Counted from the first letter of the stretch, positions 15,050 through 32,935 are shown. The stretch is DNA of 64,000 nt from a virus (IMGVR_UViG_3300022660_000043), one strand, 5' to 3'. Program-made: numbers and translations. Notes: generated by a model not told the origin, from the letters alone.

Positions 15050-16957
15050 TTATTTTAGGCCGGCAAGCTCAAGAAGATCATCATCAATGTCATAGCCACC
15101 GGAGTACTGAGTTTTCTTTACAGACTCTTTTAGCTTAACTTGGGGTGTTCTCTGTGCTCCCATGCCAAGATTGAATGCCGGTCTTCCGGCGTCGAGGAGT
15201 TTTTCGCAGACACGATCAACATCCTCAAGGGTATAACCCTCATTGAGTTTACTGGTTATATCATGCGTGCTAACTCCGAGCATTGTTGCTTTTGAGGCAA
15301 TGTAGTGTTCTACTACGGCAACATACTTTTGCTTATATGCCTTAGCCGCAGTTGTAGCTTTACGTGCATTTTCACGTGCTGTATCTACCTGCTCTCTAAG
15401 CGCTTGCTCAGTAGCTTCCGCCTCATTTTGCGATGTAATTAGTTTTTCTTGAAGTTCAGTTAGCTTACGATTAGAAGCTTCTGTACTTTCGACTAATCTA
15501 GATTTGGCTTTCGCCTGAAGATCTTGAATAGTAGCATCTTTTGCACTAAGCTGCTCATTAAGAGATTTAACTTTCTTTTGCAACTTATTAGACTTAGAAG
15601 CAAGTTCGCTCACTCTTATGAAGCCAGTCTTGTATTTGGAAAGCTCTTCTTCCAGTTTCTTAACCTCAGCATCGCTAACTGTCTTTTCCTGCTTGAGAGC
15701 TAAGACTTCTTCTTCAAGTGCATCCTTCTGTCGAACAATTTCCTTCAAGCTTTCGACAACTTCCTCATCTCCATCATCGGTGGCTTCCTCAGAATCGTCT
15801 TCTTCTTTAGGCTGTTCATCTTCGGTTGCTGGCTCTTCTTCGTCTGCGTCAGATTCTTCGTCTTCTACATCTTCTGTATTATCACTTGTTTCCAAGTTAT
15901 AATTAAAACTAACTTTAAGCTTACCTTCTTCAGCTTCATCATCGAATACTAATTCAGTAATCTTAACTGTATTGCCGTCTAATTCAATAGGATCGAATGA
16001 AAGTTCAAGTTCTTTATCATACTCTCCCATAACGTCGAGTAAGTCACCAAGAGCTACGGCATCAAGCTCTTTGTTTTCATCATCAGTTTCAGGGGTGTCT
16101 GCCTCTTCAGCATCTTCACCTTCGAGCTCATTTGCTGCTTCTTCCGCTTCAACTTTTGCAACATCTACCTCTTCAGAAGATTCTTCTGCATCTTCCTGTA
16201 TAGGTTCTTTAACATCAGCACCTTCATTGTCATGAGTGTCTAGCACAGGTGTGATTTCTTCAGTAGTTTCTACAAGCGGTGCTTCACCAGGAGCCCAAGG
16301 AATATCTGGGTATGGATCATCTTCCTCCATAGTAACATCAAGTCTTTCAAGAGTTGCCTCTGCTTCAGCTCTATCTGCCTCAGTCATGGAATCAAGAGAC
16401 TCACGAAGTGCCTTAGAAAGGGTTTTATGATTTTTTAATGATTCACACATAGTCAATCTAGCTTTCTTAACAGCAGGAAGCTGTACAATATCCCAAGTCT
16501 CAAGGAAAAAGGTTTCAGGGTCTACCTCATCATTAGCCATGATATCACCGGAACCTCTAGAACTAATACCAGGCACAAAGCCATAATCGCAGAGGGTTTT
16601 GAGCAGTTGACCTTGCTTGGTATCAAGTATGTCAACGTAGGCATAAAGATCTCCGTCGATTACCTTAGGTAACTCAGGAATACATGCACATACTACACTC
16701 ATATCGGTTTCTTCACGGTCTACTGGGTGTCCGAGCTCAAGGAATAAACTCTTATTAGCTACTTTCTCACGGAAAATCTCATCCTTAAGAGCTTTGTCCC
16801 AAAGCTGAGCATTATAGCCTCTACCGTTACGAGTTTTTTCTTTTGAAGTCGCAATAGGTCCCCAGAGTCGGCCGAGAATATGTCGACGCGCTTTTTCTTC
16901 TTCAGACAGGGGCTGCATCTGTAGAGCTTCTAAAACTTTTGTATTTTTAGAATCCAT
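15050..16957 (-). CDS. Prohead protease (gp21-like) fused to acidic linker and coiled-coil scaffold
   Basis: TRNGRGY, LELGHP, GISSRGSG and WDIVQLPA protease motifs; C-terminal coiled coil. Start placed at MDSKN from the RBS (the ORF track starts at 16972). Confidence 0.88.
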   Translation of the reverse strand: MDSKNTKVLEALQMQPLSEEEKARRHILGRLWGPIATSKEKTRNGRGYNAQLWDKALKDEIFREKVANKSLFLELGHPVDREETDMSVVCACIPELPKVIDGDLYAYVDILDTKQGQLLKTLCDYGFVPGISSRGSGDIMANDEVDPETFFLETWDIVQLPAVKKARLTMCESLKNHKTLSKALRESLDSMTEADRAEAEATLERLDVTMEEDDPYPDIPWAPGEAPLVETTEEITPVLDTHDNEGADVKEPIQEDAEESSEEVDVAKVEAEEAANELEGEDAEEADTPETDDENKELDAVALGDLLDVMGEYDKELELSFDPIELDGNTVKITELVFDDEAEEGKLKVSFNYNLETSDNTEDVEDEESDADEEEPATEDEQPKEEDDSEEATDDGDEEVVESLKEIVRQKDALEEEVLALKQEKTVSDAEVKKLEEELSKYKTGFIRVSELASKSNKLQKKVKSLNEQLSAKDATIQDLQAKAKSRLVESTEASNRKLTELQEKLITSQNEAEATEQALREQVDTARENARKATTAAKAYKQKYVAVVEHYIASKATMLGVSTHDITSKLNEGYTLEDVDRVCEKLLDAGRPAFNLGMGAQRTPQVKLKESVKKTQYSGGYDIDDDLLELAGLK

Positions 16958-17994: not shown

Positions 17995-19953
17995 TTAGTG
18001 ATTCTCAGTGAAATCTCTATCCGAGTCTGCTTCTTCCGGAGTGGGTAGATCATTATCCTCTTCAAATAATATATCCTCTGCTAGCAGAGTTCCACCACCG
18101 TTAGATGTGAATCCTTCAGCTGCGATAGCATCATCTGGCATAGCTGCTAAATCATCAGCAGCTTCGTCTCCTTCAGCAGCTGCTAGTTCGGCTGCCATAT
18201 CCTCATCTCCGCCGGCTTCAGCTTCCTCAGCTGCCTTAGCAGCTTCTTCTTCTGCGGCTTCAATTTCTTTTTGAATAACTTCCGAAATGTCACCGCCAAG
18301 CTCTAGAGTTGCAAGCAAAGATTTAAGAATTGTAAGACGTCTAGCCTTATTTTCAATATCTGTGAACAAGCCGTTAACATTGCTAATAGCAGACACTCTA
18401 TTGGTAAAGTTTTCTCTATAGCTAACTTCTTCCTGAGTAACTGGTGCTCTCATTTTTAGTACAAAATTGTTAAGATATGCTTTGCAACCTCTATCTAGCA
18501 GGAAAAGATTTATTGCATCAGTTAACATTTGAAGAGTAATGTTTTGAATTCTCTTTACACCTTTTGCATAAACACTGGATAATACTGTTAAAGCAGTTCC
18601 ACCATTAAATCCTGCCCCATCATCTGTCCAACCAAAGTACTGCTTAGGAATTCCAAATGAAGAATAGAATTTATTATTCCACCAATCAAGGTCTGTAAGC
18701 TGCTTAGGGTCAAAGTCACCACCAACAGATTCTACAGTGATAGCTCCCTTACCATCTCTAGTAGCATAGTATATAAAGTTTTCAACAGAACCTGGATTAT
18801 TATACTCGGCAAAAGACCTATCTGTATTGTAGGCGGCCTTTTGCTCAAACATTTCTTTTACCTTACGAAGAGTAGCCGCAACTTGTTCTTTACCCATGTC
18901 ACCGACTTCTACGCCAACTTTACGTACTATACCAGATTTTGTAATACGGCTTAAAAGTACAGCAGATTCGAGTAAAGCCTTTTCTCTCCAGATTTTATAA
19001 GCATCATAAAGTAATGATTTACCACGCTTTACAGAGTATGTAAAAGTTTCTCCGCCTTTATTATCAAGTTCTTTATTCTGTTCTTCGTAGAACAAGTCAA
19101 CAGTTTCTGGGAACCTAGAAATACCGTCTTCTAAGCAGGCATGTACAAAATCATCAGCTTGCCAAATATTTACGTCACTAGTTCCATATTTAAAATTAAA
19201 GGCATTAAGGCCTTGACCATTTCCACTACCACCCATTAAACCAGTAGTGGCACCTAGATAAGCAGCCGAGTCAATAGCATTTTCTTGATTAGGGACTTCA
19301 ATGTAGCCTTGGGTCTGACCAAATTTTGTAAGCTCAAACATTGTACCTGGATCTGCAACCATCTCAACATAATAGCTATAACGGTCGCCTGCAGGTCTAA
19401 CATTAAGTCTTACTGCCTCATCTAATTCTTTACTTTCATTAAGTTTAGTTTTAGTTTTAGCTTTAAAGATTGGATCTTTATAATCTGAATCTCTATATAG
19501 ACGTAGATATACATCTCCGTATTTAATTAGGCTGTATACCCAGCCAAAGATTTTTTTATCTACATTCATAATGTTAAGAAGGTAGTTTACAAATCTTGCA
19601 ATATCTGGATTATTTGATTCACACCATACGATGTGACCATTATCTGCAGCCTCACATACATCTTCTGCATAAGTTCTTACAATAGAACTTACAGCTGAAT
19701 CTTGACACATTGTATCTATAAGCTGATATATTTGGTCTCTAGCATTAGATATGGAAGTAAAGCTTTCAATAGCTGATACATCTAGTGTATGACTTAGGCC
19801 AGCTTCAATAATATTGTCGACTAAAGATTTAGCGGTATCAATATCTAGTTTAGTCGTGGAATCCAACACTGTTGGTTTTGCCTGATGACCTATCAGGGGA
19901 CTGTTTGTAGGAGTCTTTAAAATATCGACTTCCTTGGTCTCTTCATTTGCCAT
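17995..19953 (-). CDS. Portal protein (T4 gp20-like)
   Basis: LIKYGDVYL, RGKSLLYDAYKIWR..LLESAVLLSRI, VEVGDM, DLDWW.NK and GIPKQY motifs. Confidence 0.88.
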   Translation of the reverse strand: MANEETKEVDILKTPTNSPLIGHQAKPTVLDSTTKLDIDTAKSLVDNIIEAGLSHTLDVSAIESFTSISNARDQIYQLIDTMCQDSAVSSIVRTYAEDVCEAADNGHIVWCESNNPDIARFVNYLLNIMNVDKKIFGWVYSLIKYGDVYLRLYRDSDYKDPIFKAKTKTKLNESKELDEAVRLNVRPAGDRYSYYVEMVADPGTMFELTKFGQTQGYIEVPNQENAIDSAAYLGATTGLMGGSGNGQGLNAFNFKYGTSDVNIWQADDFVHACLEDGISRFPETVDLFYEEQNKELDNKGGETFTYSVKRGKSLLYDAYKIWREKALLESAVLLSRITKSGIVRKVGVEVGDMGKEQVAATLRKVKEMFEQKAAYNTDRSFAEYNNPGSVENFIYYATRDGKGAITVESVGGDFDPKQLTDLDWWNNKFYSSFGIPKQYFGWTDDGAGFNGGTALTVLSSVYAKGVKRIQNITLQMLTDAINLFLLDRGCKAYLNNFVLKMRAPVTQEEVSYRENFTNRVSAISNVNGLFTDIENKARRLTILKSLLATLELGGDISEVIQKEIEAAEEEAAKAAEEAEAGGDEDMAAELAAAEGDEAADDLAAMPDDAIAAEGFTSNGGGTLLAEDILFEEDNDLPTPEEADSDRDFTENH

Positions 19954-19966
19954 TATATAATCTCCT

Positions 19967-22042
19967 TTATAAAACTATGATACCGTCAGAGATATCACGA
20001 TAATATTCATATTCCTCACGTTCTTGCTGTGAACGTAAATTATCTGCTGCCCAAATTTCTTGTTGAGTTTCAAAATATAATCTTGAAAGCTCATTTTCGA
20101 AAGCAGCGATCATTTGTGACTTAAGTGCAGTTTCGGATTGTAATAAGCTTACGTCAAGCCCTGCTTCAAGGTTTTCACCGTAGCTATAAGCAAACTCTTC
20201 TGCAAATTTACTTGCTAAGTAAAGCGCTCCACAAAAAGCGTCGGCTTGGTCTTTTGAGTTAATACCATCAGCAGTATGATCAATCTTACCATTAGACAGT
20301 CTTTCAAGACCAACAAGCTCGTCTGTGAGCAGATCACATTTTTTATAAATCTCTACTCTTCTTTCATAAATAGCTGTTTTTAGATAGTGATAAGGTAAAC
20401 ATGTTCTGCTTGTCTGATCAACACGGTCTACAGAAATTAGCTCTGTTCTAAAACCATCACTCTTAAGATCTTGCTGAATCTGGGCAGATTGGAATGTATC
20501 GCTTGATACTCCTTTTATTGCAAAGCCTCTATCACGCAGCCATCTAATAAAGTTTCTATTCTTTTCAAAACTTACTTGGTAGCCCTTCGGCGCTTTAACT
20601 GATACAGAGAAGGCAAGTTTATACTGCAACTCTCTTGAAGCGTCTGCATTTTCACCAACTTGTGTAGGACGTTTGCCTGTAATCCAAACACCAGAAATAC
20701 CAGTTTTGTCTCCAGAAATAGACATATCAAGATGGATAAATAGTGGTCTTGTTAAATCCATTGGATTTACCACACTTAAATCGAAGAAGTTAGCATATTG
20801 CAATTTATCATCTGGGCTATTACCAACTTCAATAATATCTTTCATGAATGGATTTCTATAAGTATCCACTTTGGCTTGGTTAAGTCGGACACCAGAAATA
20901 TATTTAGTGTTGCTGGAGGTGGAAATACCTGCAATGTCCATAAGTGCTTGGTCAAGGTTAGTCTCAAAATCTTCTCTATATCCAGGTGGAATTTTAATTA
21001 GAGAATAACCTTTTTCTCTGTATTTATCTACCTGATCTTCAGGTAAGTTTGCAGGGAGTAGTTCATGTGCTAAGAACTTATTACCTACAGCTACATAAAA
21101 AGCGCCAACGTCTTCAGGTGATCCTTTTCTAGGGTCAACTACCCATTGAGCCTCATCAATAATTAAAGTAGTTTTACTTTCGTTTTGTCGTTTAATATTT
21201 ATGTACGAATCGAGGAACGCTTGCTCGGTATCTTTGGACGAAATAATAATATTAAGTGTTGGTAGATAGGTACCGCGTAAAAAACGAGAACGCATACGTG
21301 CATCGATCTGTGCGATAAGTTTCTTTTGTTTAGCTTTTTTCTTTTCTACATCGTTTCCAATACCGAAGTTAACTTCATCTGTTAGATTGCAGAACAAAGC
21401 ACGACCAACGACGTGTCTATTTTGTGAACCAAAAATAAGCTCTATGTGTTTTCCAGGCTGCCAAACAGGATTAGACCTACTCGCATTTACGGCGCCATGA
21501 TCCATAAACCAGGAAGAGCTCTGAATAAGCTGTTGTGCCTTGTCCCAAGCAACGCCTTGTGCTGCATCCAATGTGATATTAAGCATTGAGAACGTAATTT
21601 TATCAATAGGCTGCATCCCAAAGTACGCATAAGGGTCTTTTAAACAAAGCATTCTATATAAAAGGTAAAGCTGTGCAATAACTGCTGCAAAAGATTTACC
21701 AATACCAATAGCACCCGTTAAAATTAAGGTATTATAAGCGGTAGTAAGGTTATCTGGGAAAAGTTTTTTTAAAGTTTCACGCCAGTATGGGAAGATAGTG
21801 CAACGTCTAGAACCGGACATTTGATCTACTTCCCATAGGCCTTTACCTAAATATCTATCATCATCAAGAAAGGTATCTATATCAACAGGGACTTCCTCAA
21901 AGTCACCAAACTGGAGCTGCTCTAATAGCTCAGATTGACCTTCTTGTGATATTTGTTTTAATATTTCAAGTGCTAGTTGGCGCTCTTCTTCATTCAAGCT
22001 ATTTAAGACATCAAGATCTATTGGATTTTCATTAGAAATCAT
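19967..22042 (-). CDS. terL: Terminase large subunit
   Basis: Walker A GAIGIGKS, Walker B LTDEVN, RNase H-like HLDMS..GD and KDQADA; adjacent to the portal gene. Confidence 0.9.
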   Translation of the reverse strand: MISNENPIDLDVLNSLNEEERQLALEILKQISQEGQSELLEQLQFGDFEEVPVDIDTFLDDDRYLGKGLWEVDQMSGSRRCTIFPYWRETLKKLFPDNLTTAYNTLILTGAIGIGKSFAAVIAQLYLLYRMLCLKDPYAYFGMQPIDKITFSMLNITLDAAQGVAWDKAQQLIQSSSWFMDHGAVNASRSNPVWQPGKHIELIFGSQNRHVVGRALFCNLTDEVNFGIGNDVEKKKAKQKKLIAQIDARMRSRFLRGTYLPTLNIIISSKDTEQAFLDSYINIKRQNESKTTLIIDEAQWVVDPRKGSPEDVGAFYVAVGNKFLAHELLPANLPEDQVDKYREKGYSLIKIPPGYREDFETNLDQALMDIAGISTSSNTKYISGVRLNQAKVDTYRNPFMKDIIEVGNSPDDKLQYANFFDLSVVNPMDLTRPLFIHLDMSISGDKTGISGVWITGKRPTQVGENADASRELQYKLAFSVSVKAPKGYQVSFEKNRNFIRWLRDRGFAIKGVSSDTFQSAQIQQDLKSDGFRTELISVDRVDQTSRTCLPYHYLKTAIYERRVEIYKKCDLLTDELVGLERLSNGKIDHTADGINSKDQADAFCGALYLASKFAEEFAYSYGENLEAGLDVSLLQSETALKSQMIAAFENELSRLYFETQQEIWAADNLRSQQEREEYEYYRDISDGIIVL

Positions 22043-22101: not shown

Positions 22102-23448
22102 TTACTTTTTTGCATCTTCTTCGTCGGAATTGTCGGTCTGCTTCTTAGCCTTTTCATCAGTTGCTTTATCTTCAGCCTCAGGCTTTTTATCAGAATTATC
22201 AGAAGCTTGCTGTGGCTCAGTTTTTTTAGCTTCTGGGGCTTGTTCCTTAGTCTCAGGCTTCGTAGCCTTCTGTTTACCTCCAGTGCCCGTAACGGGGTTT
22301 TTATTGGTACCAGGCTTATATTTACCTCTATTACGACCGTAATCATTGATAGCATCAATAATAGATTCAGACGTAGCAAGCTCTGTATCTTCTGGTAAGA
22401 GATTGTTTTCTTCAGCTTCGTCAAATGTCACTCCATAGAGCTTAGGAAAAATAAGCTTCAAAAACGCAGGTCTAAGCTTCTCTTCCGCATAGTGTACATA
22501 GTTATTTATAACACTAGCTACTTTAATTACCCAGTCACCATTTGCTAAACATAGAAGTACATGCTTACAACCTCTACCAAGCTGATCATTCGGGTTTCTA
22601 ATACCTTTTCCAGGTCCTGGGTCTTTAGATGTGTCATCTACTGACACCCTATTTATGATATTCCAATGAGCAAAACGATATTTATAGTCTGGACAGGAGC
22701 ATTTTACAAAAATATTAGCAGTATTAAAGACTTTGGTCAATGACTGCACGATAGTTTTGAATTCCAGAGTATTTTTATTGTTCTTAATGTTGCGTGCTAT
22801 CTCTTTTACTACACCATCCATACGAATACTAACAGTATAATTGTCAGTTTCACCAGTAACTGGGATAGAAACCTCCAAAATATCCTCTTTAAAAAGTTTA
22901 TTCATGTCAATTTTATTATACTGCTTTACTGTTTTTGCGATTTGAGAGTGTTTTTTACGCTCAAAGCGATTTTTTCCGCGCATTTGATTTTTATATGGTC
23001 CAACAGATCTAGATTTTGATACTAAAAGTGTTCTGGAGTCTTCATGGAGAGCTTCATTTAAGATTTTATACTCCCATTGAGGCACCATAACCATATCTCT
23101 ACCTAATTCGTACAGCTTTTCTCCGGATTTTCCAGTAATTTCAATATCATACAGATAATCTGGTTCAACTGCAAATTGTACCCAAACCTCATCTGTAATA
23201 TGTTGGTCTTGAACTTCACTGCTGGTTGGGATATAATAATTATCTGTTTCAATACTATATACTTTAAAACGCTGTCCCGTAATATCTTTATTTTCGTTTA
23301 TGCCAATAAGACAACCTTGAATAGTTGTACTAAAACAAATACGTGGAACTGTCTGGTCTTCATAATCACTTACCGGTACTCTTGGTACTAAAAGCTCTAA
23401 TTCAGATTGGCTTAGGTGATAAAGCGTCTTTAAGGCAGGCATAGGCAT
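22102..23448 (-). CDS. Two-domain protein: ADP-ribosyltransferase-like N-terminus + SWIM Zn-finger domain
   Basis: LYHLS...PRICFST...DEVW (ART-like strand pattern, tentative); CSCPD...CKH (SWIM); domains joined by ILNEALHED. Confidence 0.55.
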   Translation of the reverse strand: MPMPALKTLYHLSQSELELLVPRVPVSDYEDQTVPRICFSTTIQGCLIGINENKDITGQRFKVYSIETDNYYIPTSSEVQDQHITDEVWVQFAVEPDYLYDIEITGKSGEKLYELGRDMVMVPQWEYKILNEALHEDSRTLLVSKSRSVGPYKNQMRGKNRFERKKHSQIAKTVKQYNKIDMNKLFKEDILEVSIPVTGETDNYTVSIRMDGVVKEIARNIKNNKNTLEFKTIVQSLTKVFNTANIFVKCSCPDYKYRFAHWNIINRVSVDDTSKDPGPGKGIRNPNDQLGRGCKHVLLCLANGDWVIKVASVINNYVHYAEEKLRPAFLKLIFPKLYGVTFDEAEENNLLPEDTELATSESIIDAINDYGRNRGKYKPGTNKNPVTGTGGKQKATKPETKEQAPEAKKTEPQQASDNSDKKPEAEDKATDEKAKKQTDNSDEEDAKK

Positions 23449-23479
23449 ATCCTTTCAATTAAAATTTTAATTCATCGTA

Positions 23480-23488
23480 TAATTTAGC
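23480..23488 (-). promoter_or_regulatory. Putative late promoter GCTAAATTA
   Basis: Motif copy upstream of the ART/SWIM gene. Confidence 0.65.
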
Positions 23489-23520
23489 ACATTATAATGC
23501 TATTTATACATTATAAAAGG

Positions 23521-23547
23521 AAAAGAGCGCCAAAATAGCGCTCTTTT
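23521..23547 (-). terminator. Rho-independent terminator
   Basis: AAAAGAGCGC/GCGCTCTTTT stem. Confidence 0.75.
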
Positions 23548-23549
23548 AT

Positions 23550-25334
23550 TTAAATACCCGCAAAATTTAATAGCTCAATAAAATCTTTGTCTTCTTGAGT
23601 AGTTAGTGACTCTCCAAGTAATACTGGGATAGGCTGTCTGTCATATTTATTTTGAATAACCTGTACTGGGAATTTAGTATTCCAGCCGTACTTTAGTCCA
23701 AGAAGATACATACGATGTCGGCCTTCCTGGCCATAAAGCTCACTACTTCTATCAAAACAGATATAGGGCATTGGAAATTGTTTATTATATACATCTAATA
23801 CTTGTTCAAGATGCTTAAGTTTAATTTGATCAGCTGCCATCCAAGACTTTATTTGGTCTGCGCTAACTCCTTGAATTTTAGCACAGAGCTTAAAATACTG
23901 ATCAGCTGTCATTGGAACAATATCATACACTAATTCCGGGTAATTAGTATTACCAGCTAATAGGTCTTTTGCTCCAAAATTACTTCCAACGGTAGTATCT
24001 ATTTTATCTGTATCAGTTAGCTCCTTAGTACCATAATCCCAGAACTTTTGGTCATTATCTAAGTAAGCTTCAGAAAGATCCGTTAACGATAGACGAGCTG
24101 CTACCACTTTGGCTCTAAGCTCTTTTAGTTTATCAAGATAGCCTTTATTACGCATCTCTTTGAAGACTAAATTTTCTGTAGAATATTCTCCGTCACCTTG
24201 TAAACCTTTTGCCCTAAGTTCATAAAGATCCTCAACAAATTCATCAATTGGAGTTTCATCTATGCTACCCGGGCCCTCTAAAGTTTTTAAGAGTTCTTTG
24301 TAGCGTTTTTCCCAAGGTTTTAAAATATCATTGATTTCTGCTATATCAATATCTGGAATAGCTTTATTTTCTGGTTCCTTAATCCAGGTATCATTTAAAA
24401 CAGAATATATGCCATTACTCACTACTGGAGTATCATCGCTTTCAATATATACTTCTACAGGGACACCATAGAAACTAATATCATACTTCTTATTAAACGC
24501 ACTTTTATAAGCATTAAATAGAGCAGGATATAAACCATCTGGATCTTCTATTCCTGACATATCAGCAACAAGATGAATATCTGCATCACTATCTTTTGTA
24601 TAGTTATAACTTGCATTTGAACCAGTTAAAACAATGTCTTTTAGCTTAAACTTAATGTCAGCCTCTTCCATTGCATTAATTAACTCTTCAGCTACTTCAA
24701 TAGCTTTTTCTCTAACATCTTTTTTTAGCTTTGTACCATCAAAAAGCTTAGGATTAAGCTCATCATGCTTCTCTATGTCTTCGTCTACATCAAGTCCTTC
24801 AGTTATTCTAGTATGCTGTACTATTTTGTAAAGTTCAACAAGTCGGTCTAAAATATCTGGCATATTTTGGACAAGATCTAAAAATTGAGGGACCATTGCT
24901 TCTAAAGTAGTAATATTCTTAAGTCCTTTTTTAAGCTGCGCCGCAACAACATCTTTACTAAAAGTTAAAGCCTCTACATAGGCAATAAGTAATCCAAAAG
25001 AAGGTGGAAAATAATCAAAGCAATCTAAAACAAGATTTCCCACGGTAGCTGGTGTAGTTTGCCAAACTTTCTGTGCAAATGGAACACCAAACATGCTTGG
25101 GCCTAGCTGAGTGAATAATTCATGTGGAATAATAAAAACTTCCTTGCCCATGATCTCAAATTCTTTTTCCATTTTAGCTCGCACATTTTTAAAGCCAAGA
25201 CTACACGCGCAAAGATAGTAATTACAAAAGGTATCAAAATTTAAGCTATCAAAATCATATTTTGACAAGTCTTGATCGACACCTTTGATGAGATCAATAG
25301 TTCTAGGATGCCATTTCATTTGTCTAATATCCAT
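23550..25334 (-). CDS. Multidomain protein: unknown domain + Pol-beta nucleotidyltransferase + ParB-like domain
   Basis: LTGSNASYNY..DSDADIH and PVEVY (GS, DxD, third acid); MPYI...QEGRHR (ParB/Srx-like). Confidence 0.7.
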   Translation of the reverse strand: MDIRQMKWHPRTIDLIKGVDQDLSKYDFDSLNFDTFCNYYLCACSLGFKNVRAKMEKEFEIMGKEVFIIPHELFTQLGPSMFGVPFAQKVWQTTPATVGNLVLDCFDYFPPSFGLLIAYVEALTFSKDVVAAQLKKGLKNITTLEAMVPQFLDLVQNMPDILDRLVELYKIVQHTRITEGLDVDEDIEKHDELNPKLFDGTKLKKDVREKAIEVAEELINAMEEADIKFKLKDIVLTGSNASYNYTKDSDADIHLVADMSGIEDPDGLYPALFNAYKSAFNKKYDISFYGVPVEVYIESDDTPVVSNGIYSVLNDTWIKEPENKAIPDIDIAEINDILKPWEKRYKELLKTLEGPGSIDETPIDEFVEDLYELRAKGLQGDGEYSTENLVFKEMRNKGYLDKLKELRAKVVAARLSLTDLSEAYLDNDQKFWDYGTKELTDTDKIDTTVGSNFGAKDLLAGNTNYPELVYDIVPMTADQYFKLCAKIQGVSADQIKSWMAADQIKLKHLEQVLDVYNKQFPMPYICFDRSSELYGQEGRHRMYLLGLKYGWNTKFPVQVIQNKYDRQPIPVLLGESLTTQEDKDFIELLNFAGI

Positions 25335-25344
25335 AACATCCTCC

Positions 25345-25878
25345 TTATAGTTTTTTAGTAATATCTGATATTATATCTGCGGTGCCAGAACCATTAATGA
25401 TATCATTAAGCATTTGTGGAATTTTAGCATAGTAAAGCTGTTTGTTAAAGTATTGTTTAATTTGCTGTACGAATTTAGGTAAATCAAGTACAATTGCCCA
25501 AACCAAATAAACCAGTAGTGTTTCAGCTGATGTTAAATTTGGAAAAGGATGAAGATATAAATTCGTAACTACGGGAGCAACATCTAAATCTGTCTTATGT
25601 TTAAGTAATAATTGAGCTTCATAGGGAGTAAATTGTGTTGAATCAATTTTATCAATATCTGGCCAGATATATAAATCTAAACCACCTCTATTGAGCATTT
25701 CAGCTTTAATTTGTTGCTCAGCATTTTTAAATCCGTTACTTATACAAATGTTATAATAAGTAACTAGCTTAATAGAACTGCATGCTTTTAAATTTTCTCG
25801 TCTTTGACCTTGGTTGAAAAGACGCATTTTATCATAGCCGCTAAGTGACGACGCTTCATAAAGTTTTATAGTTTTCAT
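25345..25878 (-). CDS. Hypothetical protein, probable internal head protein
   Basis: N-terminal MKTIKLYEA leader. Confidence 0.55.
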   Translation of the reverse strand: MKTIKLYEASSLSGYDKMRLFNQGQRRENLKACSSIKLVTYYNICISNGFKNAEQQIKAEMLNRGGLDLYIWPDIDKIDSTQFTPYEAQLLLKHKTDLDVAPVVTNLYLHPFPNLTSAETLLVYLVWAIVLDLPKFVQQIKQYFNKQLYYAKIPQMLNDIINGSGTADIISDITKKL

Positions 25879-26966
25879 TAAAACTTACCTGCCTCTAACC
25901 TTGCTGGAATTACAAATTTGGCATTGCATGCGTCACAACAAACACCAGTTTCAGACACAGGAGCCGGATCATTACCGTATCCCTCAATTTCTTCTCCGCA
26001 GATTACACAAATTTTTTCTACTGCTTCGGTAAGTTTTTCGGTAAGACGATCATCATAGGCATTATCAAATTTTTCATCGGATGCAGTATCTGGGTTAAAT
26101 CTCGGACGATCTTCTTCATGTTTTACGTTAAGATCATAGTCCATGACTTTAACATGGTTTTTATCATATAAGATACCATCATCATAATAATAAATAATAT
26201 CACTTGGTTGTAAGAGGTGCACATCATCATGATCTGCAAGTGATTTCAAGGAGTATACAGAGCAATTTGCTTCGCCTACTTCTTGTACAAGTGCTTTAAG
26301 AATATCAGATTTTTTAGAACAGAAAATATTTTGAGGTCTAATATAATAACGCTTAATATATCTTTTAGGCTTTGGCTCTCTATCTTCGTCCTTGTCCTCA
26401 TGCAAGCTTTCAATACAGCTGCTGCTAGCCTCACTGCTACAGGCTGTATCTGCGCCTGCACTATTACTTCCAAGGTCTGAGGTTCCCATACGATCATTAA
26501 AGCATTTATCATCAAACTCTGGGTAACCAGTGGTAAAGGTAAGGTAAGTACCATCATCACCAAAGCGACTCTTGCGACGCTTTCTTTTATGTTTCTTTTC
26601 TGTAAGAGGTTCTTTAGTCCAGCTTTCTAGAAATTCACAGTCGGCTCTATTAAGCATATTATTAATTGCCTCGATAGCTTCTTCTGTAGATCCTTTGTGC
26701 TCACTATCAGCACAAGTCATTTGTGAGCATACCTGAGGAGTATTAGGCACTTTAATCAAATGAATTCTTACTTGACCGTCTACTTCTGCTTCTTTAAACT
26801 GATTTACAAAGCTAGCATAATCTGGTTGTATAGTTTCAGGCGATGTATCGCATTTATAAATGTAACTGCAAGTAGGAAGGCTTTGTTCTATTACTAAGGC
26901 AAAGAGATCTGATGTATCATCAAACTCTTCTAACTCCCAGTTTTCATTAACAAAATATTTTTTCAT
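25878..26966 (-). CDS. Multi-segment protein with C-terminal Zn finger, probable internal head protein
   Basis: CVICG..IEGYGNDP.P....CCDACN; multiple L/F-x-E motifs. Confidence 0.6.
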   Translation of the reverse strand: MKKYFVNENWELEEFDDTSDLFALVIEQSLPTCSYIYKCDTSPETIQPDYASFVNQFKEAEVDGQVRIHLIKVPNTPQVCSQMTCADSEHKGSTEEAIEAINNMLNRADCEFLESWTKEPLTEKKHKRKRRKSRFGDDGTYLTFTTGYPEFDDKCFNDRMGTSDLGSNSAGADTACSSEASSSCIESLHEDKDEDREPKPKRYIKRYYIRPQNIFCSKKSDILKALVQEVGEANCSVYSLKSLADHDDVHLLQPSDIIYYYDDGILYDKNHVKVMDYDLNVKHEEDRPRFNPDTASDEKFDNAYDDRLTEKLTEAVEKICVICGEEIEGYGNDPAPVSETGVCCDACNAKFVIPARLEAGKF

Positions 26967-26992
26967 TATTTTGCCCCTTTCTTGTGGATGAA

Positions 26993-27043
26993 GATGCCCA
27001 AGGACGCGCGGTGAAAGGATAAGCCCACACGCCCCCGAACATC
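26993..27043 (-). promoter_or_regulatory. Structured 5' leader RNA (19-bp G-U-rich hairpin, possible pseudoknot with RBS)
   Basis: 19 contiguous pairs including 7 G-U, possible only on the minus strand; loop UCCUUUC is complementary to the downstream GAAAGGG RBS. Confidence 0.6.
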
Positions 27044-27046
27044 ATA

Positions 27047-27055
27047 TAATTTAGC
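27047..27055 (-). promoter_or_regulatory. Putative late promoter GCTAAATTA
   Basis: Motif copy just after a terminator. Confidence 0.65.
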
Positions 27056-27064
27056 AAATATAAA

Positions 27065-27096
27065 AAGCGGAGTAGCCATTTAAGCTTACTCCGCTT
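27065..27096 (-). terminator. Rho-independent terminator
   Basis: AAGCGGAGTA/TACTCCGCTT stem with a T tail on the minus strand. Confidence 0.75.
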
Positions 27097-27107
27097 GAAT
27101 TTTTTAA

Positions 27108-27671
27108 TTAGCCATTTAGGCGTCTTGTTTTAGGTGCGCCCTCATCATCATAAAGCTCAGCATCTGTAACAGGTGCTTGAGTCATATCAGGCTCATCAAA
27201 GTCTACAAAAAAATCAAAGTCATCATCAATGATGGGTGCTGGAGCAGGTGTACGAGACACAGGCGCTTTCATAGGCTCTACATCAAACTCTGCTTCAGGA
27301 AGAGCAGGTGCAGGCGCAGGTTCTTCTGCAGCTTCATCTTCTTCATCCTTATCATCATCTTTAGACTCGGACTCAGACTTGTCATCCTCTGTATCTTCTG
27401 CTTCATCATCATCTTCTGGCTTTTCTGTAGAAATGTCAGCCTTATCATTAAGATAAAACTCAAGCTGACCAATAAATACTAGATACGCGTCCATAAGGTC
27501 TTGCATTAGTTCTTCAACTTTTTCAGTGCCTGCGTAAGTTTCTCGAATAGCAGCAGCGGCTTCTTTTAGATAGCCTACCTCGTCCCAGCCCTTACTCATC
27601 ATATCTGTAATAAAAGATACAGGAAGTTCTTCCATAGTAGGCTTATCATTATCTTCTCTTAAAATTCGCAT
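27108..27671 (-). CDS. Acidic hypothetical protein, probable internal head protein
   Basis: MRILRED leader; acidic/Pro-rich C-terminal half. Confidence 0.55.
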   Translation of the reverse strand: MRILREDNDKPTMEELPVSFITDMMSKGWDEVGYLKEAAAAIRETYAGTEKVEELMQDLMDAYLVFIGQLEFYLNDKADISTEKPEDDDEAEDTEDDKSESESKDDDKDEEDEAAEEPAPAPALPEAEFDVEPMKAPVSRTPAPAPIIDDDFDFFVDFDEPDMTQAPVTDAELYDDEGAPKTRRLNG

Positions 27672-27685
27672 AGTATATCCTTTCC

Positions 27686-28567
27686 TCAGATTAAATTATA
27701 TTCAATAGTGCCTAAACGGCCTTTAAGTTCTTTAGGTAAATTAGATGCACGAATACCATTTTTCCATAGATACCATACACAGCCATCCACAAGAACTTTC
27801 TTGGAATGATCACCCCAAGTATCCATATCGCTGTCTGTAAGAATCATTACATTAGTACAGCCACTCGCAAGAATTTGATTTACAATATGAGGCCAAGCAC
27901 CGGTTCCACCACCTTTGCTTCTTGCACCTTCTGGAGTTGTTGCAATATCATCTGTAAAGTAGAAAATATTAAGTTCTAACTTACCATCATCAACAAATTC
28001 AGAAAGGTCTTCGACAACTGCACGACCTCTTATTAAATCGCTTTCACTCCAAGAGCCTGAATAATCTAAAAATACTTCAATCTTAGGTACTGTAGGTCTA
28101 GTTACATCTGTAGTTCTTTTGCCTCGTACTACCATATCGGGGTCATCTTCATAGCGTCTATTAAGCACTAGCCAAGTTTCTTCTTCCTCTTCATAAGCTC
28201 TAACTTGTTCAGAAATTGTTTCAAAAATATCATCTCTAAGCTTATTCTGGTTGTTATTGGCCATGCGTTTCTTATAACGCTCAGCTTCTCTTTGTTTAGC
28301 ACGAAGAGCTTTTCTTTCATCTCTTTCTGGCTTTAAATAAACTTCATCTTCATCAAAGAGTTCTTTATTCTTTGTAGCATCGCTGGCATCTGCTTTAATT
28401 TTTGCAATTCGAGCCGGCAGATCCGTAGAATAGTCAACAGGCTTAACTGTACTTACTAGATCAAGAATGTCATCAATCATACTATCATATTCTTCTTGTG
28501 ACATTTCACCTAGAGTTTTAGCTTCAAGTAATTTTTTAGCTTCAGTAAGAGAAATTCTTTTAATCAT
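27686..28567 (-). CDS. vWA domain protein (DUF2201 C-terminal type)
   Basis: MIDAS VFLDYSGS, GGGT and ILTD; start at MIKRISLTEA overlaps the upstream stop codon. Confidence 0.8.
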   Translation of the reverse strand: MIKRISLTEAKKLLEAKTLGEMSQEEYDSMIDDILDLVSTVKPVDYSTDLPARIAKIKADASDATKNKELFDEDEVYLKPERDERKALRAKQREAERYKKRMANNNQNKLRDDIFETISEQVRAYEEEEETWLVLNRRYEDDPDMVVRGKRTTDVTRPTVPKIEVFLDYSGSWSESDLIRGRAVVEDLSEFVDDGKLELNIFYFTDDIATTPEGARSKGGGTGAWPHIVNQILASGCTNVMILTDSDMDTWGDHSKKVLVDGCVWYLWKNGIRASNLPKELKGRLGTIEYNLI

Positions 28568-29321
28568 CGATATCCCCCGTTCCGCCAAGCTCATCGAATA
28601 GTTTTCTTAGAGCTCTATCTGCGCCTGTTTTTGCGTTACCGCCTAGCCCCTTAAGTCTTTTAATAACTGCGGCTAAAATTTCTTCTGGGGTAGGCTGTTT
28701 ACCATTACCCATGCCGCCTTGTCTCATCCTAAACGGGTCTAATTCTTTTGAGCTTGAGCTGCTTTTGCCTTTTCCGCTGGCTTCACGGCTCTCACCTTTA
28801 TCTCCAGTATCAGCTTCACCACTACCAGCGCCACCACTACCTTTTGGACCAATAGACTTAGTGCCTGCTGCATGATTACCATTATGTTTATTTAAATCAG
28901 CGATATCTTCAGGAGTTTTTTCTTCTTGCTCATTCTCACTCTCACCTGAATTACTTTTACTAGAGCCTTGGTCTTCAGTATCACTAGCACTATTATCGTC
29001 ACTATTTACTGTGGTACCATCCACAGTTCCATTATCACTGTCGTCAGGTTCCTCTTCAGTTTGAGTGCCTTTATTGTCATCGCCGGTATCACTAACTGAA
29101 GGTGGATCTTCTTCATCCTCATAATCCGGTTGTTGAGTAGCTAATAATATTTTTTCAAGGGCATCTGCTTTAGCATTAAGCATATCTGCTACATCTTGTT
29201 TACCTGCAGCTACAGCTTCCGCAGCAGCCTCTCGAGCAAGTTTGATAGTACGATCAGCATCTACTATTCTGTCAAAGACTACGTGGTCTGATACTATATT
29301 TTTTGGAATTTCAATTGCCAT
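28560..29321 (-). CDS. Low-complexity linker-like protein of the MoxR-vWA cluster
   Basis: Helical ends flanking a D/E/S/G-rich disordered core. Confidence 0.6.
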   Translation of the reverse strand: MAIEIPKNIVSDHVVFDRIVDADRTIKLAREAAAEAVAAGKQDVADMLNAKADALEKILLATQQPDYEDEEDPPSVSDTGDDNKGTQTEEEPDDSDNGTVDGTTVNSDDNSASDTEDQGSSKSNSGESENEQEEKTPEDIADLNKHNGNHAAGTKSIGPKGSGGAGSGEADTGDKGESREASGKGKSSSSSKELDPFRMRQGGMGNGKQPTPEEILAAVIKRLKGLGGNAKTGADRALRKLFDELGGTGDIDD

Positions 29322-29322
29322 A

Positions 29323-30399
29323 TTACACACCTCTTGTCTTATCCCAGATATCTTTTATTGTATTGCTGTCATACCCGAAATTTTTCAAGGTAATATAGAC
29401 AGTTCTATACCAATCTTCTTCTTCTGATCTAAATTTCTTAATAACCTCTACTGCAAAACCTTTTTGCTCTGGAGTGTGTAAATCTACAACTTTTTTGGCT
29501 GTCACAGGATGAATTATTGGAGTAGTATGTGTTGGATTAGACTTTTTAATTGTAAGCAATAAACTATCTACTTGCTTGTCATTGATAGGTGTTGTGGTAA
29601 AAGCTTCATAGATAGATTTAATAATATTATAATAATCTTCAGGTAAGTTACGTCCTTTAAACTTAAAGTCATTAGCTGCCATGTCAGCCAGTAAGTCATC
29701 AATTTCCGAAGTACGATCAATTTCTCCATATTTATCCATAGAAGCTCTAATTCTTGGAGCAAGGTCATCCTCTGGATTACTATGATGAGCGATAGCTGAC
29801 TTGATTCCATTAGCAATCTCATTATGTATTGCATCAATTTCTGCTTGCAATCTATGGTACATCTGCTCTATCGGAAGATCTACCCATTCAAGTCTAATAT
29901 CATCCGTGATAAGACCACCGATAGTTCTACCATTAAGGAACATATTTCTTACAACTTCCTTATCTTCCGCAGAGTAAATCCTATCAGAAATCTCAAGATC
30001 TTCAATATAATTTAAAAATCCATGCAGGGTCATACTATTACCCCACTTGATATCAAACTCTTCACCAAATTTTCTCATCATACGAATCTGGTGCATAAGA
30101 AGATTGTGTGCTAGCTCGTGTCTCATAAGCACATTAAGTTGGTAAAATAAAGACTCATCTAATAAAAAGCCTTCACTAATATAGATAACGCCAAGATCAA
30201 AAGAAATTGCAGCAGTACAGGTAGGGTCTGCTTTCAATGAAACAATTTTAATATTAAAATCTTTGAGGCGCATTGCATACTTTTTGTGGTGGTGACCTTT
30301 ACCATCGTCGAGAAGCAGCTTAATAAGTTTTCTATGTAGCTGCTTCTCTTGCTTAGTCATATGCTGCTTAGCCTCAGTTAAGCGTAAGCTAGATTTCAT
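29323..30399 (-). CDS. Zincin metallopeptidase-like protein (DUF2201 N-terminal type)
   Basis: TAAISF, HELAH (HExxH) and NYIEDLEIS. Confidence 0.75.
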   Translation of the reverse strand: MKSSLRLTEAKQHMTKQEKQLHRKLIKLLLDDGKGHHHKKYAMRLKDFNIKIVSLKADPTCTAAISFDLGVIYISEGFLLDESLFYQLNVLMRHELAHNLLMHQIRMMRKFGEEFDIKWGNSMTLHGFLNYIEDLEISDRIYSAEDKEVVRNMFLNGRTIGGLITDDIRLEWVDLPIEQMYHRLQAEIDAIHNEIANGIKSAIAHHSNPEDDLAPRIRASMDKYGEIDRTSEIDDLLADMAANDFKFKGRNLPEDYYNIIKSIYEAFTTTPINDKQVDSLLLTIKKSNPTHTTPIIHPVTAKKVVDLHTPEQKGFAVEVIKKFRSEEEDWYRTVYITLKNFGYDSNTIKDIWDKTRGV

Positions 30400-30414
30400 A
30401 TGCCCTCCAATTAG

Positions 30415-31797
30415 TTACCATGCCTTAGCAGCGTTTCTGATTTTATCTTGAACTACTGATGGAGACACTGCATAGGTAGTACCAGCAGAGTTACCATTTG
30501 CAAACAAGTCATCATCATCCTCGCCGTAGTCATCAAAATTAATTTCATCCTCTTCTGATTCACCTTCATTTTCCTCAGCTTCAGGTTCTTCAGTCTGTAT
30601 ATCTACATTTGCGCCAAGTGCCTTAAGGTCAATGCCTTTTGTGGAGCAAAGATCTTCAAATGTTGGCTCATAATAATCATTAATAATGGTCCTTAACATA
30701 TCCATATTGTCTTCAAGGAAGTCAGAAGAATTAAGTAGCGTAAGGAAACCATCTTTTGTACCTCTACTTGCCTTAAGAAGCTCAAACAGCATTCTCTGGT
30801 TAAGCATATCTGCATCTTCCATCTCTAACGCCTGTAACATACTCTGAAGCTCATCTTTGGAAGCTGCACCCTCACCATCATATTTAAAGTCTCTATGATT
30901 TACAATAAATCTGCCTAGGTGCTGAATTCTTAAAAATGTTTCAAGATTACGTAAAAAATTAGGATGTTTCGGATTAAGCTTTTTAATAAGCCTGTCATAA
31001 TACTTGAGAAGGAAGTCATCTGTCGTTCTGGAATCAGAATGAGCATTTTTATTCTTAAACAGATATCTGGTTTTCTCTGCCTGGAAGAGCTTAGCTGCAC
31101 CGGGGTCAGACTTTAAACTTGGGTTGATACAAGCTACTGTAAAGAGTAGGTTTTTAAAGTAGTACTTGCCACCGGGAACATCAGCCTGAATAGTTTTATT
31201 GTTTACCAAGGTAAGTAGAGAACCACGAATCTGGTCTTTAGTCTGTCTATTAAGCTCATCAAGGAAGATAATAGAATTCTTACTCTCATCCTTAAGAGCA
31301 TCAAGTGTATTTGAGAAGGCCTTAGTAACTTTCTTACGGTCTGTATCATCTCTAACCGTAAAGCCGTTAATGAAAGCTTCTAGGTCATTATCTTTTGCAT
31401 TAATTTCGACACAGTTAAGACCTCTAGCCCTTGCCCAGTTTTCTACAATGGCTGTCTTACCAGAGCCAGGTAAACCAGAAATAAGAACATTACCCATACT
31501 ATGCTGACCTAGTTGCTGTTGCTCTAGAGCATATTCAAGAGCTCTGTCAAGAAGGTCAGTAATTACATTTTTAGTTTCAATAGCACCAGTATCACCTTCC
31601 TCATCTGGGAGGAATATAGCTTCTTCAGCCTGAATAGCTTGGCCTACCTCTTTAATTTCAGCAGCTGCATCTGTTGCTGCTTCCGCAGATACCTCACCGT
31701 CTGTAGAGTCTTCAATCTCATCCGCAATCTCTGCTACGGAGTCAGAAGTATTAATATCTGCTGCTTCAATGTCTTCTTGTAGTCTTTTAATTTTCAT
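30415..31797 (-). CDS. MoxR-family AAA+ ATPase
   Basis: GLPGSGKT, IIFLDELNR and ACINP; adjacent to the peptidase and vWA genes. Confidence 0.85.
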   Translation of the reverse strand: MKIKRLQEDIEAADINTSDSVAEIADEIEDSTDGEVSAEAATDAAAEIKEVGQAIQAEEAIFLPDEEGDTGAIETKNVITDLLDRALEYALEQQQLGQHSMGNVLISGLPGSGKTAIVENWARARGLNCVEINAKDNDLEAFINGFTVRDDTDRKKVTKAFSNTLDALKDESKNSIIFLDELNRQTKDQIRGSLLTLVNNKTIQADVPGGKYYFKNLLFTVACINPSLKSDPGAAKLFQAEKTRYLFKNKNAHSDSRTTDDFLLKYYDRLIKKLNPKHPNFLRNLETFLRIQHLGRFIVNHRDFKYDGEGAASKDELQSMLQALEMEDADMLNQRMLFELLKASRGTKDGFLTLLNSSDFLEDNMDMLRTIINDYYEPTFEDLCSTKGIDLKALGANVDIQTEEPEAEENEGESEEDEINFDDYGEDDDDLFANGNSAGTTYAVSPSVVQDKIRNAAKAW

Positions 31798-31808
31798 AAT
31801 TATCCTCC

Positions 31809-32879
31809 TTATTCTCTAATGAATGCCTCAGCATAAGCTTCTACATCGCCAATCTTGTAGCTATTGTACTCAATGTTAGCTGCTGCCTCATTCATACGTC
31901 TAGCAGAGATGGCACAATCTCCAAATTCAGTTTCAACAAGAAAATAGCCATTTCTCTCAGAAGCCTTCTTAACAATTCTAAGGTTAGAAATGTCAGATCC
32001 CCAATTCTTTGCCATACACTGAGCAAGGAAAGCATTAGCATCATTGATATCATCAAAATAACAAGTACAGTCAGCATAACCATGAGAACTGCTAATAAAT
32101 ACCTTATTGATACCATTGCCGTTATCACCCTGCTTACTAAGAGGTTTAACTAACGCGTATGCAGGAGAAGCAGACTTAGCATTATCTGCTACAATACAAA
32201 AGCTGATATTAGTATTTGCATATACCTTCTGTCCAGGCTGACCCTTAAGGGCTCTTGCATTACCAGACTGTGGGCCAGAACTTTTATAAGGATTAGCTGG
32301 GCCCTGACCTGGAGCTTTTGGAGCGCTAGGAGTTCTAGGAGTTCTAGGAGCTCTTGTCGCAGTTGAGGCACCAGTTGTTGTAGCAGCAGAGGCGGAGGTT
32401 GTACTACCTTTTGCAAGTTGCTGAGAAAGGAAGCATTCAAAATCCCAGAGTTTACCTCCAATAAGAGTCTGTCTATACTGATCCATTTCCTGAGTAGTTT
32501 TATTTGTATTTACATCATCCCAGTAAATACAGTTTTCAGCACAGAAATCTGCAATATAGCCACTGAGAGTGTCAGGTGCACGTTTTACCATTCTTGAACC
32601 TTTTACTCTGCCAAATGCTGTAGGATCTACAAAGAATTTGCATTCAGCTACTGAGGCGATTGCTTTATCTACATTAAAAAAATCAAAGCCTCTATGCACA
32701 ATTTCATCGCATATAGTTTTAATATCTGCCTTTTTACTATAATTCGAAAGACCAGTCCATCTTCTGCCTAAGGAGCTACCAATTGAGGTGTCGCCAGGCT
32801 GAATAATACCGCCTTGCCAAAATAAGTCGAGTAGAAAGCCTTTTGACTCTAACTTGTCTTTAGCCGAAAGTTTTGCCAT
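31809..32879 (-). CDS. Hypothetical two-domain protein with Thr/Pro/Ala linker
   Basis: First gene after a late promoter motif; C-terminal MNEA and FIRE motifs. Confidence 0.6.
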   Translation of the reverse strand: MAKLSAKDKLESKGFLLDLFWQGGIIQPGDTSIGSSLGRRWTGLSNYSKKADIKTICDEIVHRGFDFFNVDKAIASVAECKFFVDPTAFGRVKGSRMVKRAPDTLSGYIADFCAENCIYWDDVNTNKTTQEMDQYRQTLIGGKLWDFECFLSQQLAKGSTTSASAATTTGASTATRAPRTPRTPSAPKAPGQGPANPYKSSGPQSGNARALKGQPGQKVYANTNISFCIVADNAKSASPAYALVKPLSKQGDNGNGINKVFISSSHGYADCTCYFDDINDANAFLAQCMAKNWGSDISNLRIVKKASERNGYFLVETEFGDCAISARRMNEAAANIEYNSYKIGDVEAYAEAFIRE

Positions 32880-32921
32880 TATATATCTCCTTTTACCTAA
32901 AATAAAGTTTTTGATTTCAAA

Positions 32922-32935
32922 TCAATTAATTTAGC
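32922..32935 (-). promoter_or_regulatory. Putative late promoter GCTAAATTAATTGA
   Basis: Motif copy heading the MoxR cluster. Confidence 0.7.

Follow-up and report, generated by a model that had tools for sequence, protein, structure and literature searches.

A ten-gene island of probable capsid-loaded, protease-cut proteins beside the head genes of a large uncultured rumen phage

Results

Ten late-type genes upstream of the packaging and head genes

The window analyzed here is a 64,000-nucleotide stretch of the virus IMGVR_UViG_3300022660_000043, corresponding to the reverse strand of positions 41234-105233 in a single 221,361-bp virus record rated ~95% complete. Positions 22102-32879 of the window are filled by ten consecutive open reading frames (ORFs) on the minus strand, g1-g10, located upstream of the terminase, portal, prohead protease, and capsid genes. 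An initial annotation made from the DNA sequence had described this island as ten consecutive non-structural-looking genes under three late motifs, with probably capsid-packaged and protease-matured products. The ten ORFs bear out the gene count, and the position upstream of the gene for the terminase large subunit (terL) is kept in relatives. The features of the island are as follows (aa, amino acids; pI, isoelectric point; the slash marks the putative cleavage position).

32921..32935, minus strand: late-type promoter-like motif GCTAAATTAATTGAT, 42 nt upstream of g1
31809..32879, minus strand: g1, 356 aa, with a middle part rich in Ser, Thr, Ala, and Pro and no leader motif
30415..31797, minus strand: g2, MoxR-like AAA+ ATPase, 460 aa, leader MKIKRLQE/D, acidic N- and C-terminal tails
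29323..30399, minus strand: g3, zincin-like protein with HExxHxxxxH, 358 aa, leader MKSSLRLTE/A
28560..29321, minus strand: g4, acidic low-complexity protein, linker-like, 253 aa, pI 4.4
27686..28567, minus strand: g5, DUF2201/VWA-like protein, 293 aa, leader MIKRISLTE/A, start overlapping the g4 stop
27108..27671, minus strand: g6, 187 aa, very acidic (pI 4.05), leader MRILRE/D
27041..27055, minus strand: late-type motif GCTAAATTATATGAT, upstream of g7
25878..26966, minus strand: g7, 362 aa, N-module with leader MKKYFVNE/N, conserved core after LHE/D, C-terminal Zn-ribbon after LTE/KLTE/A
25345..25878, minus strand: g8, 177 aa, leader MKTIKLYE/A
23550..25334, minus strand: g9, 594 aa, N-module (residues 1-186), putative minimal Pol-beta-type nucleotidyltransferase after VDE186/D, C-module after LSE447/A
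23521..23547, minus strand: strong intrinsic-terminator-like hairpin (12 pairs and a T run), directly after g9
23474..23488, minus strand: late-type motif GCTAAATTATACGAT, upstream of g10
22102..23442, minus strand: g10, 446 aa, variable N-domain (phrog_5043), joint LHE134/D135, CxC...CxH SWIM-like core, charged tail

The island has a promoter-like element in common with the head genes, as the 15-nt late-type motif GCTAAATTANNNGAT precedes both. Eight copies of this motif exist across the 221-kb genome. The head region (record positions 72-92 kb) has six of them, which precede g1, g7, g10, a 106-aa gene, and the genes for the protease and the adaptor. The three late motifs previously reported for the island are therefore present, before g1, g7, and g10, and the motif shared with the head genes suggests that the island is expressed late. 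The 141-nt spacer between g6 and g7 (26967-27107) contains an unusually G+C-rich stretch past the late motif, just before the ribosome-binding site of g7. Outside the window, a gene for a 1122-aa protein (G000:C1:131463-134831; L079:164-3532) also has the late-type motif GCTAAATTATATGAT, and its product starts with MDKFEDMVE/D; Pfam and PHROG searches with this protein gave no match, and it is possibly a further large virion protein.

Short basic leaders ending in Glu are enriched in the island

The six leaders on g2, g3, and g5-g8 are all found in the sequence as initially quoted and stand behind good ribosome-binding sites, with the correct start of g5 being an internal ATG at 28567. Gene-calling artefacts were considered as a source of these leaders and were ruled out, because ribosome-binding sites and start contexts are good and independent public gene calls give identical starts. 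Enrichment of such starts was assessed on a simple gene call of 305 proteins, as 10 island proteins versus 295 others. A strict rule, i.e., a basic leader in which [LIVMFY]xE ends at residues 6-10, is matched by 6 of the 10 island proteins and by 27 of the 295 others (Fisher p=1.6e-4), and a loose leader rule by 6 of 10 and 62 of 295 (p=0.01). The strict rule was formulated after the data had been seen, so conservation in relatives, which proves strongly positive, is the test that counts. Further leader matches outside the island fall on adjoining head genes, namely those for the 106-aa protein, the protease, the capsid protein, and a 375-aa protein.

Two proteins encoded outside the window (227 aa, G000:C1:39704-40387, L080:205-888; 171 aa, G000:C1:125841-126356, L081:142-657) are otherwise unrelated and share their first 14 residues, MKLYEEFK followed by x-[WY]-E, with 10 of 14 positions identical. 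Apart from homing-endonuclease starts, they are the only such pair in the genome. By analogy, this start may be a second class of address tag, recalling the capsid-targeting sequence (CTS) common to unrelated T4 internal proteins.

The leaders are conserved in relatives

Conservation was assessed in 72 related loci, with counts given for unique, N-terminally intact orthologues and the motif defined as Leu, Ile, Val, Met, or Phe at P3 and Glu at P1, with P1 at residues 5-16. The motif is found at the N-termini of the AAA+ ATPase (5/5), the zincin-like protein (10/12), g6 (15/15), g7 (5/6), and g8 (7/8), and of two head proteins, the protease (15/15) and the capsid protein (6/6). Among the controls, it is found in none of 24 portal proteins, 9 of 32 terL proteins, and 6 of 19 p157 proteins; the island protein g1 also lacks it (0/4). 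The leaders of g6 orthologues are 5-11 residues long with the P1 Glu counted in.

A database search with the g2 AAA+ ATPase provided a broader sample of 120 homologues with 33-100% identity. MKIxK, followed by 0-8 residues and then [LIVF]xE, is present in 104 of 112 unique N-termini, frequently with a second tandem site, and of the eight exceptions, five are fragments short at the N-terminus, and in three the start was placed too far upstream, so that the leader can be seen slightly further in. The pooled site logo (n=47) has Leu (68%) or Ile (19%) at P3, Glu at P1, and mainly Ala (40%), Ser (21%), or Asp (15%) at P1', where Asn is also present, behind a leader that is net basic. This logo fits the L/I-X-E rule of T4.

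The same motif marks module joints

The motif also lies inside fused proteins, at positions aligned with N-terminal leaders. In relatives with g8 fused behind another module, the joint reads ...SLLE/AS... or ...SLDE/AS... at the residue aligned with MKTIKLYE/AS of the window, and where g5 is fused behind an acidic g4-like part, LxE occurs at the aligned joint, e.g., ...ESLTE/AK.... The nucleotidyltransferase domain of g9 is preceded by [LIVMF]xE in all 27 unique orthologues, although its start ranges from residue 3 (MNE/AIEKH) to residue 738 of a giant fusion, and the motif is found at its C-side boundary in 9 of 12. In g7, the motif precedes the core in 20 of 20 and the Zn-ribbon in 22 of 22 unique orthologues. 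In front of the g10 core, the joint Glu is invariant and P3 is Leu in at least 90% of 27 sequences, with N-domains that are mutually non-homologous. The N-domains of g10, g7, and g9 are all swapped among relatives. The earlier placement of internal sites at domain boundaries was thus mostly right, except that the conserved site of g9 is VDE186/D, six residues after the RITE that had been quoted. By these alignments, the motif marks module joints at which evolution appears to cut and paste.

A single T4-type prohead protease accompanies the motif

The phage is large and uncultured, comes from the rumen, and has a T4-type head; its Shine-Dalgarno usage suggests a Firmicute host. Most related contigs stem from metagenomes of the rumen and gut, and the closest cultured phages by capsid protein are the Bacillus phages vB_BceM-HSE3 and SP-15 and the Listeria phage LIS04, with just 27-29% identity; the same comparison makes SP-15-like phages of the Thornevirus group the closest cultured relatives. 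The papers searched contained no virion proteomics for SP-15-like phages. Downstream of the island on the same strand, the head module contains an adaptor gene and the following genes.

19967..22042, minus strand: terminase large subunit, terL (phrog_2)
17995..19953, minus strand: T4 gp20-type portal (PF07230, 6.8e-35)
15050..16957, minus strand: S77 (T4 gp21-type) prohead protease with an acidic, coiled-coil, scaffold-like tail (PF03420)
13701..15017, minus strand: gp23-type major capsid protein with propeptide (PF07068, 4.9e-28)

The S77 protease is present as a single copy in the genome and matches PF03420 above the cut-off (3e-9). Its His77 and Ser132/133, which we take to be the catalytic pair, are invariant in the alignment with T4-like gp21. 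The N-terminal KVLE10/A of the protease aligns with the LIE of T4-like gp21, and FLTE50/S of the capsid protein aligns column for column with FLTE/AEIGG of T4-like (Mosigvirus) gp23; T4 gp23 is cleaved at this FLTE. The protease gene encodes 635 aa, of which the N-terminal third (residues 1 to ~215) is the S77 domain. The remaining ~420 aa are scaffold-like, first highly acidic and then coiled-coil, with a pI of 4.35. The gene is probably a scaffold fused to its own protease, whereas T4 encodes gp21 and gp22 separately.

In T4, gp21 acts inside the prohead and cuts at L/I-X-E, the CTS propeptides have 10-19 residues, and gp21 itself carries LIE-9 (PMC9026906). T4 core proteins are cut to fragments that leave the head, and T4 and phiKZ-like phages retain processed enzymes, i.e., Alt and virion RNA polymerase, in the head (PMC9026906). 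With one S77 gene in the genome and a T4 counterpart that acts inside the prohead, the simplest reading is that all sites are cut by this protease and that the island proteins are in the prohead. At the level of sequence, processing within the prohead has good support.

Other features of the head region concern its assembly genes. Two small genes between portal and protease (17036-17356 and 17493-17966, both minus strand) take the place of T4 gp67 and gp68. The 106-aa gene in this interval encodes a very acidic protein that starts with MRLIYE/K and has its own late motif. Downstream of the adaptor gene, a 579-aa protein (11079-12818, minus strand) has a net charge of -101, a pI of 4.1, many L-x-E, and no family match. 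Many relatives (L006, L007, L010, L011, L013, L019, L033, L041, L052, and L055) have terminase and portal genes split into 3-5 ORFs, which points to frequent interruption of the packaging genes in this lineage by introns, inteins, or homing endonucleases; in the window, both genes are uninterrupted.

The island encodes a putative MoxR-type system and modular proteins

Judged by sequence, g2-g5 together resemble a MoxR/DUF2201-type (or CobS/CobT-like) system whose parts are encoded by separate genes. The earlier label of an AAA+ ATPase holds for g2, which matches AAA (PF00004, 2.8e-8) and AAA_5 (PF07728, 3.5e-7) above the cut-offs, in line with the MoxR clade, and contains Walker A and a DE[IL]NR-type Walker B. 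Its score against AAA_3 (PF07726) is 26.5 bits, just below the 27-bit cut-off, and its homologues carry precomputed PF07726 and PF07728 matches. In the g3 orthologue alignment, L7 and E9 of the leader and H94, E95, H98, and H103 are invariant; Peptidase_M48 gives weak matches in 3 of 8 orthologues (best 2.6e-4), with no such match and no PDB match for the g3 of the window itself. In most relatives, g4 is fused to the downstream vWA-like protein g5. The vWA label of g5 is supported by a DxSxS that is invariant in 14 sequences (D168, S170, and S172) and by an Atlas language-model feature search, in which 25 of 30 matches are DUF2201 (scores 0.93-0.95) and VWA_CoxE also appears; profile searches do not support it, since no Pfam, NCBIfam, or PDB sequence match covers the domain.

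The middle module of g9 matches phrog_36119 at 2.4e-33 and has a visible GS-x-D-x-D pattern, and its score against NTP_transf_2 (PF01909) is 17.8 bits, below the 21-bit cut-off. Distant homologues of this nucleotidyltransferase are present in a T4-like cyanophage and in Maribacter phage Molly, where the proteins start with MKRLLSE/ and MNLKTLVE/, both basic leaders ending in L-x-E. The 'ParB-like' C-module of g9 and the 'ART-like' N-module of g10 proposed in the initial annotation found no match in profile searches against Pfam (E up to 1), NCBIfam, and PADLOC; a more remote likeness in fold may exist.

The core of g10 makes its description as a non-structural gene doubtful. In SP-15 and LIS04, homologues of this core are encoded within the neck gene modules as 185-aa proteins starting with MNLFE/ and MILFE/, and g10 may accordingly be a virion component in its own right. 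A small terminase was considered for g10 because of its position and found no support, as the core maps to the SP-15 neck module. The core ligands C248, C250, C292, and H294 are invariant in 27 sequences. The core has no Pfam match to SWIM (PF04434), and its Atlas neighbours are viral clusters, one with SWIM on 10% of its members. AlphaFold gave a predicted local distance difference test (pLDDT) score of 44 for the whole of g10 with 6 sequences and of 67, i.e., moderate quality, for the core with 27 sequences. Foldseek with the core model retrieved no fold from the PDB; from the viral library it retrieved only weak SWIM-type rows and uncharacterised viral proteins, two of the latter at E <= 0.001.

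Across the island, full-length Pfam and PHROGs searches gave family names for g2, g9, and the g10 N-domain only, and PADLOC and NCBIfam added nothing useful. PDB sequence searches with the protease, g2, g3, g5, g9, and g10 returned nothing meaningful, the matches being low-complexity acidic stretches. Neither megablast with the island nor tblastn with the g2 AAA+ ATPase had a match among 50,697 phage records.

Discussion

Given the leaders and joints, the ten island proteins probably enter the capsid and are cleaved inside it. In the explanation that we favour with moderate confidence, the proteins are built into the prohead and are trimmed or cut into modules there by the phage's own S77 protease after [L/I]-x-Glu. 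The short basic leaders of g2, g3, and g5-g8, mostly 5-9 residues long, would act like the T4 CTS and target each protein to the scaffold core as it enters the assembling prohead. Cleavage after [L/I]-x-Glu would then remove the leaders and separate g7, g9, and g10 at their module joints. The predicted cargo would comprise the MoxR-like AAA+ ATPase with its zincin and DUF2201-type vWA partners, the minimal nucleotidyltransferase, the Zn-ribbon protein, and the SWIM-like protein. These enzyme modules would remain in the head after it is filled, be delivered into the cell along with the DNA, and act early there. We infer their retention in the virion, their injection, their action before gene expression, and a role in host takeover or anti-defence, and the anti-defence role is pure conjecture.

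Several observations weigh against this explanation. Eight of the ten island proteins are acidic, seven of them strongly (pI 4.05-4.9), unlike the basic internal proteins of T4. The initial view of protease-matured capsid cargo gains support from the T4-type S77 protease, the capsid FLTE, and the conserved [L/I]-x-E leaders and joints, and fits less well in the charge of its proteins. Especially g4 and g6 resemble scaffold or core proteins more, and some island proteins may be degraded rather than injected. g1 and g4 have no leader. [LIVMF]xE is frequent in this AT-rich genome with its Glu-rich proteome (~3% of positions), and single sites therefore carry little weight. The island proteins show no significant depletion of internal motifs, with an observed/expected ratio of 1.01 compared to 1.22 elsewhere (p ~0.13, a rough Poisson estimate from motif counts that indicates a trend toward depletion). 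The orthologues are non-independent samples, and some conserved sites lie directly at the starts of conserved domains, where they could belong to the fold. Finally, the MoxR-vWA pairs of the large phage 0305phi8-36 have been described as non-structural (PMC2147016).

The acidity also fits an alternative in which the proteins enter the prohead and are cut by the S77 protease but serve there as core, scaffold, or maturation factors that are degraded or expelled before or during packaging and never injected. The acidic proteins would be scaffold, and the AAA+, vWA, and zincin proteins would form an internal remodelling or clean-up machine. The pI values of g2, g4, g6, g7, and g9 (4.05-4.7) indeed resemble those of the protease scaffold tail and of the 106-aa protein p106, the tandem cut sites in many leaders fit removal, the island directly adjoins the packaging and head genes, and T4 offers the precedent of core-protein fragments leaving the head. 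However, T4 and phiKZ-like heads also keep processed enzymes, no known scaffold needs folded nucleotidyltransferase, AAA+, and zincin domains, and the N-domain swapping of g10, g7, and g9 is more like arms-race cargo than an assembly machine. We regard this alternative as unlikely, and the acidity, the non-depleted internal motifs, and the non-structural MoxR pairs of 0305phi8-36 nevertheless make it a serious rival for part or the whole of the set. A lower probability is given to the view that the motif is no protease signal, i.e., that Lys-rich codons of an AT-rich genome favour translation starts, or Glu caps helices at domain starts, in an ordinary cytoplasmic late operon beside the head genes. 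MK-rich starts are usual in AT-rich phage genomes, the loose rule is met by chance in 21% of other proteins, several sites abut conserved blocks, and the 0305phi8-36 pairs would again be a parallel (PMC2147016). Translation bias cannot explain an invariant Glu with Leu or Ile at P3 at variable distance from the start, nor the motif deep within fused proteins at the aligned residue, nor its match to capsid and protease sites that align with T4-like gp23 and gp21, and the portal lacks the motif (0/24) despite an equal genome-wide bias. We therefore consider this view improbable.

Cutting of the motif by the island zincin g3 instead of S77, as a self-processing polyprotein system independent of the capsid, seems highly improbable. 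The HExxHxxxxH of g3 is invariant, and in the three full-coverage relatives examined (L001, L004, and L011), g3 accompanies the tagged genes. On the other side, the motif occurs at capsid and protease positions aligned with gp23 and gp21, in a lineage with S77 specificity for L/I-x-E; g3 itself carries a leader; and the SWIM-core homologue of SP-15 and LIS04 keeps an LFE start; tblastn with the g2 AAA+ ATPase had no match in the phage collection, where g3 itself was not searched.

Beyond cutting in the prohead, a bolder proposal is that a head-addressed MoxR AAA+/zincin/vWA machine, a nucleotidyltransferase, and swappable effectors are delivered with the DNA as an ATP-driven host-takeover or anti-defence kit, with cassettes bounded by the protease site being exchanged among phages. 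This proposal is possible and, in our view, doubtful as a whole. If true, the kit would be the first AAA+ chaperone-type virion cargo, and T4-type heads would have a general 'polyprotein cargo' grammar. The principle of capsid targeting, which in T4 is known for Alt and three small internal proteins, would then represent a general address-and-cut grammar in uncultured large gut and rumen phages, which loads sizeable enzymes into the head and lets evolution fuse, split, and swap cargo at the protease site. It would also allow virion cargo to be predicted from metagenomes by a sequence rule and provide the first concrete hypothesis for the role of phage MoxR/vWA/DUF2201 genes, and the short natural leaders would be candidates for packaging foreign proteins in laboratory phages.

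Comparison with known systems

Known MoxR-vWA pairs are cytoplasmic chaperone-like systems. The island resembles RavA-ViaA, CobS-CobT, and DUF2201 with its N-terminal putative metallopeptidase in having the AAA+ ATPase g2, the HExxH protein g3, and an acidic linker followed by a vWA-like DxSxS protein (g4-g5), and its gene order resembles the DUF2201 system split into separate genes. It differs from these pairs in that the island enzymes each have their own protease-type leader within a late head operon and that g3 and g5 remain below every Pfam threshold. In the phage P1 Dar system (DarA, Hdf, DarB, and others; PMC9024508 and PMC12810830), as proposed for the island, a set of non-essential-looking proteins enters the head while it assembles and reaches the cell together with the DNA, where it counters host defence; this system has no sequence relation to the island, and the P1 head lineage and loading hierarchy differ.

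The ejection or inner-body proteins of phiKZ, 201phi2-1, and SPN3US provide another parallel (PMC9026906 and PMC10052503). In these large phages, as predicted here, a diverged homologue of gp21 cleaves numerous head proteins after Glu, the propeptides have redundant tandem sites, and enzymes are packaged and ejected. Processing by gp175/gp245 takes place at S/A-x-E, whereas P3 in the island is Leu or Ile, following the T4 rule, and not Ser, Ala, or Gly; moreover, no virion RNA polymerase was recognised in the island, and the lineage differs.

T4 itself, with IPI-III and Alt bearing a CTS that is cut by gp21 (PMC9026906 and PMC3012670), has a similar head. Both phages have a T4-type portal, an S77 protease, and a gp23-type capsid protein, with the motif near the protease N-terminus and at the capsid propeptide. 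In both, the signal is a short N-terminal leader that ends in L/I-x-Glu, mostly followed by Ala or Ser, and is found on unrelated proteins, with enzymes as possible cargo (Alt in T4). The leaders of the island are shorter, mostly 5-9 residues compared to 10-19 in T4, and follow a pattern instead of one common sequence, and the motif also joins polyprotein modules that relatives split or fuse. The putative cargo, known from sequence alone, is encoded by ten clustered late genes beside terL and is mostly acidic, including AAA+, zincin, and vWA proteins. Compared to both T4 and phiKZ, the new elements would thus be the shorter, pattern-like leaders, the motif as a polyprotein joint, the clustering beside terL, and the AAA+/zincin/vWA cargo.

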